Shown here in pieces: positions 1 through 244 of a stretch of DNA of 2,149 nt. The notes beneath the pieces were generated by a model. The model was not told the DNA's origin, did not search any database, and saw only the letters and a list, made by a program, of their open reading frames with translations. The translations under genes were made by a program, and so were the position numbers. The DNA is from Dictyostelium discoideum (Eukaryota). The stretch's first letter is position 1. Every line of letters starts with the position of its first letter. The DNA lies in assembly GCA_000004695.1 (NCBI GenBank), contig CH709177.1:1-2149 (forward strand). Reading direction: 5' to 3'.

Positions 1-212
1 ATCTTTTGATTTTTGTTCTTCCTGATTTTTGGTAATGTTTGTTTCCAATTCATAATCTTATGATAGGTTTCTCTAATTGATTCTGAACAAAATGGTGGAT
101 AACCAACCAACATTTCAAACATAATAACACCAACACTCCACCAATCACACTCTGCACTGTAACCATCTTTCATCAATACTTCTGGTGCAGTATAGTCTGG
201 TGTTCCAATTGA
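1..212 (-). CDS. Fragment of an NDR/LATS-family AGC serine/threonine protein kinase catalytic domain (subdomains VIII-XI only). Truncated on both sides and open at the window start, so probably a captured gene fragment or pseudogene piece, not a functional gene.
   Basis: The reverse-complement of 206..1 translates without stops as [68 protein letters not shown]. The GTPDY.APE, DWWS.GVI..EML.GYPPF and ETY.K.MNWK.TL motifs are diagnostic of the NDR/LATS kinase subfamily (established family knowledge). Upstream in the same frame there is a TGA stop at +213..215 (minus-strand codons ...NVC*SIGTPDY), so subdomains I-VII are absent. Homology stops near +30; the last ~20 nt (minus 21..2) match the coiled-coil unit end sequence instead. 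Confidence 0.75.
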
Positions 213-244
213 TCAACAAACATTACTGATCAATTGGAACACCA
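198..244. repeat. Perfect 18-bp inverted repeat (198..215 tggtgttccaattgatca / 227..244 tgatcaattggaacacca) with an 11-nt spacer. It is a palindromic fold-back junction between the minus-strand kinase fragment and the plus-strand coiled-coil array.
   Basis: Direct reverse-complement comparison. In addition, 198..225 is the exact reverse complement of the 28-nt unit-start motif at 1198..1225 (taatgtttgttgatcaattggaacacca), and 27 of those nt recur at 926..952. Confidence 0.9.

Follow-up and report, generated by a model that had tools for sequence, protein, structure and literature searches.

The perfect inverted repeat at positions 198-244 of the window (the whole 2,149-nt stretch of DNA that we analysed) lies at what is very probably a non-native chimeric join, whatever its in-vitro or in-silico origin. 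Its arms are two head-to-head copies of a short element, here called J, which together with a second short element, X, bounds every block of the window. The homology of the inverted kinase block to its native relatives stops inside these two elements, reading frames break where blocks meet, and the palindromy does not extend past the arms. On balance we favour the reading that the hairpin is the joint between two fragments that were amplified with one primer pair and then concatenated. Most likely it has no biological function and is not a biological palindrome.

The inverted repeat and the elements that bound each block

Positions 198-215 (TGGTGTTCCAATTGATCA) are the exact reverse complement of positions 227-244 (TGATCAATTGGAACACCA), forming 18 bp around an 11-nt spacer (ACAAACATTAC), and sequence comparison thus agrees with the repeat as it was given in the preliminary description. 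The longest perfect hairpin with a loop of 3-50 nt did not exceed 13 bp in 300 dinucleotide-preserving shuffles of the window, which bears out the earlier statement that a chance match of this length is not credible. Folded as single-stranded DNA, the hairpin has a predicted energy of -18.7 kcal/mol (z = -7.5), equalled in 0 of 200 shuffles. Outside both arms, the 60-nt flanks match at 20 of 60 positions, which is the background level, the left flank being kinase antisense and the right flank coiled-coil sense. The coding readings proposed for the arms were also recovered: in minus-strand sense the arm gives TGA TCA ATT GGA ACA CCA (*SIGTP), in frame with DYTAPEV of the kinase, in plus-strand sense it gives DQLEHQ in frame 3, and stops are present at the junction at 213-215 (minus) and 210-212 (plus).

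The left arm had been described as extending into an inverted copy of a unit-start motif, and it does so over 28 of 28 positions against 1198-1225 and over 29 of 30 positions against 923-952. The window holds four copies of the 18-nt arm sequence and three of a longer, 26-nt form, each of them located at a block boundary; the palindrome is therefore present at its boundary as described, but it is not isolated. We call the 26-nt form J (ATGTTTGTTGATCAATTGGAACACCA). It is found as its reverse complement at 198-223 and directly at 927-952 and 1200-1225, and a further copy, at 227-244, is shortened by its first 8 nt. The second element, X (GAAGAACAAAAATCAAAAGA, 20 nt), is found as its reverse complement at 2-21 and directly at 906-925, 1175-1194 and 1887-1906. 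J and X bound each block of this 2.1-kb mosaic, and every block, read in its own sense, has the form J-payload-X. There are four such blocks (the reverse complement of 2-225, then 227-925, 927-1194 and 1196-1906), with both orientations represented.

The copies of each element are identical (J26 in three copies, its 18-nt core in four, X20 in four), and what they enclose differs: three different sequences follow the ...CACCA of J, and three different sequences precede the GAAGAAC of X. Variation at J is confined to its left edge, where we found AGATA-ATG.., AG-TA-ATG.., A-ATG.. and the truncated TGATCA.., the 3' side being uniform, and the outer (right) edge of X is constant in all copies. The first base of J is that of the ATG opening a 236-codon coiled-coil frame that runs through X. 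J measures 26-31 nt (31 nt with an AGATA tail) and has a melting temperature of 58-59 C. The reverse complement of X has 20 nt, 25% GC and a melting temperature of 46 C; this low melting temperature and its low complexity make X prone to mis-priming.

Read from the left, the window begins 1 nt outside the X copy that closes the kinase block (2-21, minus strand), whose plus strand reads TCTTTTGATTTTTGTTCTTC and which is a putative reverse-primer footprint. The complete J copy on the kinase payload (198-225, minus strand) consists of J26 at 198-223 plus TA at 224-225 and is a putative forward-primer footprint. The left arm of the hairpin (198-215, with no strand of its own) is the 3' part of this inverted copy. 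Within the loop (216-226), positions 216-225 are the reverse complement of TAATGTTTGT, in which 2 nt of tail adjoin the 5' part of the complete J copy, and C226 is an orphan or tail base. The right arm (227-244, plus strand) is a J copy from which the first 8 nt are missing (ATGTTTGT is absent). It runs directly into the first coiled-coil payload, and 227-526 recurs as a direct repeat at 1208-1507. Further along the plus strand, X at 906-925 closes the first coiled-coil block and is followed by a single filler base, A926, at which the J copy at 927-952 joins head to tail to open a block that we call the insert block. X at 1175-1194 closes that block, AGATA (a filler or primer tail) and J at 1200-1225 together open the second coiled-coil block (1195-1225), and X at 1887-1906 closes it, its last 5 nt (AAAGA) overlapping the start of a further copy described below. 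The last base of the window falls 3 nt short of a further X. The window is 55% A, its codon usage would suit a dictyostelid, and its source is putatively a dictyostelid-type amoeba.

Searches for these elements elsewhere gave no match: J26 did not occur in viral or metagenome contig collections, J18 and X20 were absent from all 104 of the loci that were fetched (the orthologous kinase included), an exact-product look-up of four open reading frames of the window returned nothing, and neither did a megablast search against plasmids and phages.

One further pairing was seen inside the window. The 12-mer AACAAACATTAC at 215-226 comprises the last base of the left arm and the entire hairpin loop, with the orphan C226 as its final base. 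Its exact reverse complement is GTAATGTTTGTT at 32-43, which lies inside the kinase payload and is antisense of the codons K-Q-T-L. Two matches were obtained in 0 of 200 shuffles, and no model accounts for the pairing. In every copy of J, 10-11 nt of this 12-mer fall within the element, so that J is similar to kinase antisense in its 5' part.

The payloads, their homology and their reading frames

The window carries three unrelated coding payloads. The kinase payload (176 nt, 22-197, minus strand) encodes D-Y-T-A-P-E-V ... L-P-K-I of an NDR-family kinase and, with the adjoining GGAACACCA, spans GTPDY..LPKI. It matches the Pfam Pkinase profile with E = 3.3e-16, over profile positions 158-222 of 263 only. 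Among named sequences, its nearest relative comes from the dictyostelid Synstelium polycarpum, an NDR-type kinase with 86% identity; a homologue from the amoebozoan Mastigamoeba is also close, and between GTPDY and LPKI the payload is 86-98% identical to dictyostelid NDR kinases. Kinase-based locus searches of metagenomes returned only orthologues, the best being locus L001 (95% over the 63-residue query), and those of prokaryotic genomes returned only bacterial kinases, at 49% identity or less. As the native reference for the payload we used L001 352-1994 (contig Ga0256900_1012357), a complete, cDNA-like coding sequence of an NDR-type kinase with AT-rich untranslated ends on a metagenomic contig, which is evidently a dictyostelid transcript within an environmental data set. 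Between GTPDY and LPKI, 60 of 61 amino acids are identical to this orthologue, and the codons carry 21 synonymous differences and 1 non-synonymous one; the payload thus copies a gene under purifying selection and shows no decay.

In its DNA, the kinase block is homologous to L001 at window positions 16-208 only, from TTGGAACACCA to GGAAGAA, and similarity collapses beyond. These limits place the homology 11 nt into J and 6-7 nt into X, solely at the payload-facing ends of the two elements. The protein changes at the same edges. In place of the RRVLAYSNV that stands upstream of GTPDY in L001 and Synstelium P0124 (other relatives vary slightly), the window has NVC*SI, and downstream of LPKI it has RKNKNQK against MEEAKAEV in relatives. 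The TGA of NVC*SIGTPDY occupies the position of the regulatory serine of the activation segment, which in NDR kinases lies in A-Y-S-x-V-G-T-P-D-Y after the insert between subdomains VII and VIII (PMC4120859). The residues lost at the two edges are invariant or conserved among relatives. Judged by its sequence, the payload is an internal fragment of a kinase and not a gene. The preliminary description of a kinase / coiled-coil boundary suggests two adjacent genes, but the kinase part amounts to a 61-codon internal fragment cut within the activation segment.

Two side observations concern the edges of this block. On the minus strand at window 15-25, the kinase/X edge is one base short, reading ATCA-GGAAGAA where all orthologues have ATTATGGAAGAA (P-K-I-M-E-E); polymerase slippage, a species difference or a junction scar could each account for the missing base. 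In L103, a more distant relative (72% identity, on a 1.09-Mb contig), a GT..AG intron of 49 nt at 5991-6039 precedes GTPDY by 5 codons and the PKI position has no intron, which means that the edges of the kinase block in the window are not conserved exon borders. We also considered the block as a single exon with J and X lying in introns, and rejected this as the block edges lack AG/GT and the L103 intron is placed elsewhere. A native gene running from the insert block through J into the kinase, with its TGA recoded or misread, was discarded as well, given that homology to orthologues ends at TTGG and the conserved AYS is missing.

The coiled-coil payload, which is rich in K, E and Q, is present about 2.4 times in the window. 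Its first copy (661 nt, 245-905, plus strand) is open in frame 3, and the second (661 nt, 1226-1886, plus strand) has two differences from it. Over 700 nt the copies differ at 526/1507 and 665/1646 only, with G in the first and A in the second; one of these changes turns Gly into Glu in a heptad-like stretch, and the other is synonymous. The payload matched no Pfam family, and protein searches found no homologue of it. The insert payload (222 nt, 953-1174, plus strand) is coding-like and open only in frame 2 (NKNVKNNKYNNNN...TKFDDDSEKESEEEPKP...VVVKE). Its part at 953-1052 is an (AAT)n-rich tract coding for an Asn run (NNNNNNNNNGNNN), followed by the non-repetitive, acidic and lysine-rich stretch TKFDDDSEKESEEEPKPIIIKEEPKIVSVKVESKKVVVKE, and no homologue of the payload, this stretch included, was found in protein collections. 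Starting within the last 5 nt of the final X, positions 1902-2149 (248 nt, plus strand) are an exact copy of 1636-1883 at an offset of 266 nt that extends to the end of the window; X and this re-copy have only AAAGA in common at their join.

The reading frame is broken at all five junctions, both kinase edges included. Passing from coiled coil through X-A-J into the insert, the coiled-coil frame stops at the TAA at 963-965, and passing from the insert through X-AGATA-J into coiled coil, the insert frame stops at the TGA at 1208-1210. The offset of 266 nt is not a multiple of 3, so the coiled-coil frame is also broken on entering the re-copy and stops follow (..EEQKSKEKNKINWLKWN*). A hypothetical junction of coiled coil through X-A-J into coiled coil would stay in frame, over 708 nt and 236 codons. 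Introns that would restore the frame across 953-1080 were rejected for want of an AG in the right phase. On the minus strand, the 559-codon open frame at 223-1902 (MIFVLLFLFVLFF...) arises mechanically wherever coding sequence rich in GAA/AAA/CAA is complemented; it is probably not a gene, although gene callers would probably report it.

Origin of the head-to-head junction

Concatenated PCR products with mis-primed by-products, joined by blunt-end ligation, are a known laboratory artefact. That J and X served as primers and that the blocks were joined in vitro we infer from the anatomy described above. One primer pair could have yielded all fragments: a forward primer (AGATA)ATGTTTGTTGATCAATTGGAACACCA at the ATG with which the coiled-coil frame opens, and a reverse primer TCTTTTGATTTTTGTTCTTC. 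The coiled-coil block would then be the intended product, and the kinase and insert blocks mis-primed by-products whose templates matched the primers at their 3' ends only. Ligation, or an equivalent step in cloning, library preparation or assembly, may have joined the fragments end to end in either orientation, making the window a concatemer of four fragments, each flanked 5' by J and 3' by X. The hairpin would be the joint at which two forward-primer ends met, one with J complete and the other with J lacking its first 8 nt; the arms consist of the 18 nt that both copies have in common, and the loop of one base together with the 5' bases that only the complete copy has. The ragged 5' edges of J and the fillers of 1-5 nt may stem from truncated primer ends and from ligation, and polymerase error is compatible with the two G/A differences between the coiled-coil copies. 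The re-copy may have arisen when the 3' end of a finished strand (...AAAAGA) annealed out of register in the repetitive template (about 75% similarity upstream) and was extended.

Several features argue for this reading. All four blocks have the same pair of oligo-length sequences at their ends, in convergent orientation, and for the kinase payload, the one on which this was tested, a foreign payload matches its native gene only as far as the primer 3' ends. J lies at a start ATG, its raggedness is restricted to the 5' side, its length and its melting temperature of 58-59 C are primer-like, and blocks occur in either orientation. The kinase payload is undecayed, the window ends adjoin X copies, and J and X are absent from the loci searched. 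Other features fit it less well. The putative reverse primer is short, poorly paired in melting temperature (46 C against 58 C) and, as a primer, workable but weak, the base missing at the kinase/X boundary is not predicted by simple mis-priming, and the loss of 8-12 nt from one J copy exceeds typical primer truncation. The pairing of the 12-mer at 215-226 with 32-43 is left as a coincidence, and there is no evident reason for a PCR concatemer to stand as a 2.1-kb record in a sequence collection. As a variant of the joining step, ligation at GATC restriction ends was rejected, given that the blocks share 13 further nt past GATC.

The preliminary description had offered a chimeric or assembly artefact as one of two possibilities, and this is the class that we favour, the arms being two copies of an element that bounds every block. 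The same class holds a chimera formed without primers, which we regard as rather unlikely. A polymerase would have switched repeatedly at short homologies (in multiple displacement amplification, MDA, in reverse transcription or in PCR jumping), or an assembler graph would have used J and X as hubs, and at the hairpin the synthesis or the graph path would have turned onto the other strand at J. MDA chimeras have junction microhomology of 2-21 nt, and more than 85% of them are inverted (Lasken and Stockwell, 2007, PMC1855051). The microhomologies of 11 nt at kinase/J, 6-7 nt at kinase/X and 5 nt at X/re-copy fall within this range; in addition, breakpoints are re-used to the nucleotide, as graph hubs would be, the window ends adjoin X, and frames are broken. 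At the hairpin junction itself junction microhomology is absent, and the 3' terminus at 225/226 cannot pair with 216-217, so that simple snap-back priming is not supported. Template switching also leaves unexplained the J...X polarity of every payload, the position of J at the ATG and the raggedness on the 5' side only. As for a graph, the joins at 225-227 and 1906/1907 share only 0-5 nt and the kinase joins at most 11 nt, and a k-mer graph cannot make such joins, which means that the junction sequences must exist in molecules. A purely k-mer-graph misassembly was rejected on this ground, three junctions sharing 5 nt or less.

A real and very recent genomic mosaic, in which pieces of an NDR kinase gene and of another gene were captured in a tandem coiled-coil array, or introduced DNA was concatenated in vivo, is in our view quite unlikely. 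Microhomology-mediated repair or replication template switching would be the routes, and the hairpin would be a genuine short inverted duplication at a breakpoint. We give still less credence to its specific form, serial microhomology-mediated template switching in the genome of a dictyostelid-type amoeba, which would have placed pieces of an essential NDR kinase gene and of another gene between J and X in a coiled-coil array, the hairpin marking a strand switch. In yeast, fold-back at breaks is documented to give short inverted duplications of about 5-34 bp that are templated (Yu et al., 2024, PMC11724301). The 18-28 bp seen here fit that range, and there is microhomology at junctions; moreover, the 981-nt units have two differences between them, which would be in keeping with true paralogous repeats, and the unit lengths of 981, 708 and 273 nt are all multiples of 3. 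The undecayed kinase and the identical copies of J and X imply, however, that all events would have been very recent, and independent events in vivo would hardly produce about eight joins in 2.1 kb on the same four breakpoints. The frame survives at none of the junctions, and the complete J copy lies on the kinase side, whereas a single fold-back at the coiled-coil locus gives the wrong loop orientation; a single snap-back at that locus was rejected for this misfit and for that of the left flank. The other possibility in the preliminary description, a real inverted-duplication breakpoint from fold-back repair or palindromic amplification, did not hold up. Fold-back inverted duplications have long mirror-image stretches on both sides of their spacer (Hermetz et al., 2014, PMC3907307), and the repeat studied here, which is short, perfect and closely spaced, is of a type found at a fold-back loop. 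Here mirror symmetry is missing beyond the spacer region (20 of 60 positions, in flanks from different genes), and, unless the flanks were replaced at a later time, we consider it highly improbable that the repeat is the centre of a classical event of this sort. Least credible of all, to the point of being nearly negligible, is a hairpin with a function, for instance as a regulatory structure in RNA or DNA, as a terminator or as the terminal repeat of a transposon. In its favour stands the stability predicted for the stem, but the arm sequence recurs as plain coding-frame sequence at other block boundaries, no relatives carry the hairpin sequence, and an Rfam search of the entire window found no family.

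Consequences and comparison with known systems

If the window is indeed an artefact, the value of recognising it lies in sequence hygiene. The 2.1-kb sequence would be unfit as evidence for a kinase/coiled-coil neighbourhood or for a truncated kinase gene, and a 981-nt tandem repeat and a genomic palindrome would likewise be unsupported by it. The signature is recognisable: the same two oligo-sized sequences stand around every block, and a foreign payload is homologous only as far as their inner ends. Were the sequence real instead, it would show unusually dense microhomology-mediated template switching in an amoebozoan genome, and under serial template switching it would be a small multi-junction scar of replication repair caught before decay.

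Among known systems, the kinase payload resembles the NDR/LATS kinases (Dictyostelium NdrA-D; PMC4120859) in its 61 codons and its catalytic-domain match, and differs from them in having no activation-segment serine, N-lobe, insert or hydrophobic motif. With short templated inverted insertions (PMC11724301) the hairpin shares its size and an inverted copy near its template (18 bp, or 28 bp against other copies, 11 nt apart). It differs in that the 3' terminus lacks priming microhomology (225/226 cannot pair with 217/216, with a T:A contact of 2 bp at most), the complete copy is on the 'wrong' side, and the same element stands at three other, non-inverted junctions. Fold-back duplications (PMC3907307) likewise have short inverted sequences around a spacer at a strand switch, but the symmetry here ends with the 18-nt arms, and it is because complementarity stops at the arm ends that we do not class the junction with them. 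MDA chimeras (PMC1855051) are similar in that one segment is inverted and the microhomology lies within 2-21 nt; they carry a single copy of the microhomology per junction, in contrast to the two inverted copies and loop found here, and their segments have no common pair of end sequences, whereas every segment of the window has J and X. From concatenated PCR products the window departs in its short reverse element (20 nt, 46 C), in the 8-12 nt lost from one J copy and in the one missing base, and it resembles them in the shared oligo-sized ends, the ragged 5' primer ends, the fillers of 1-5 nt, the presence of both orientations and the few transitions.
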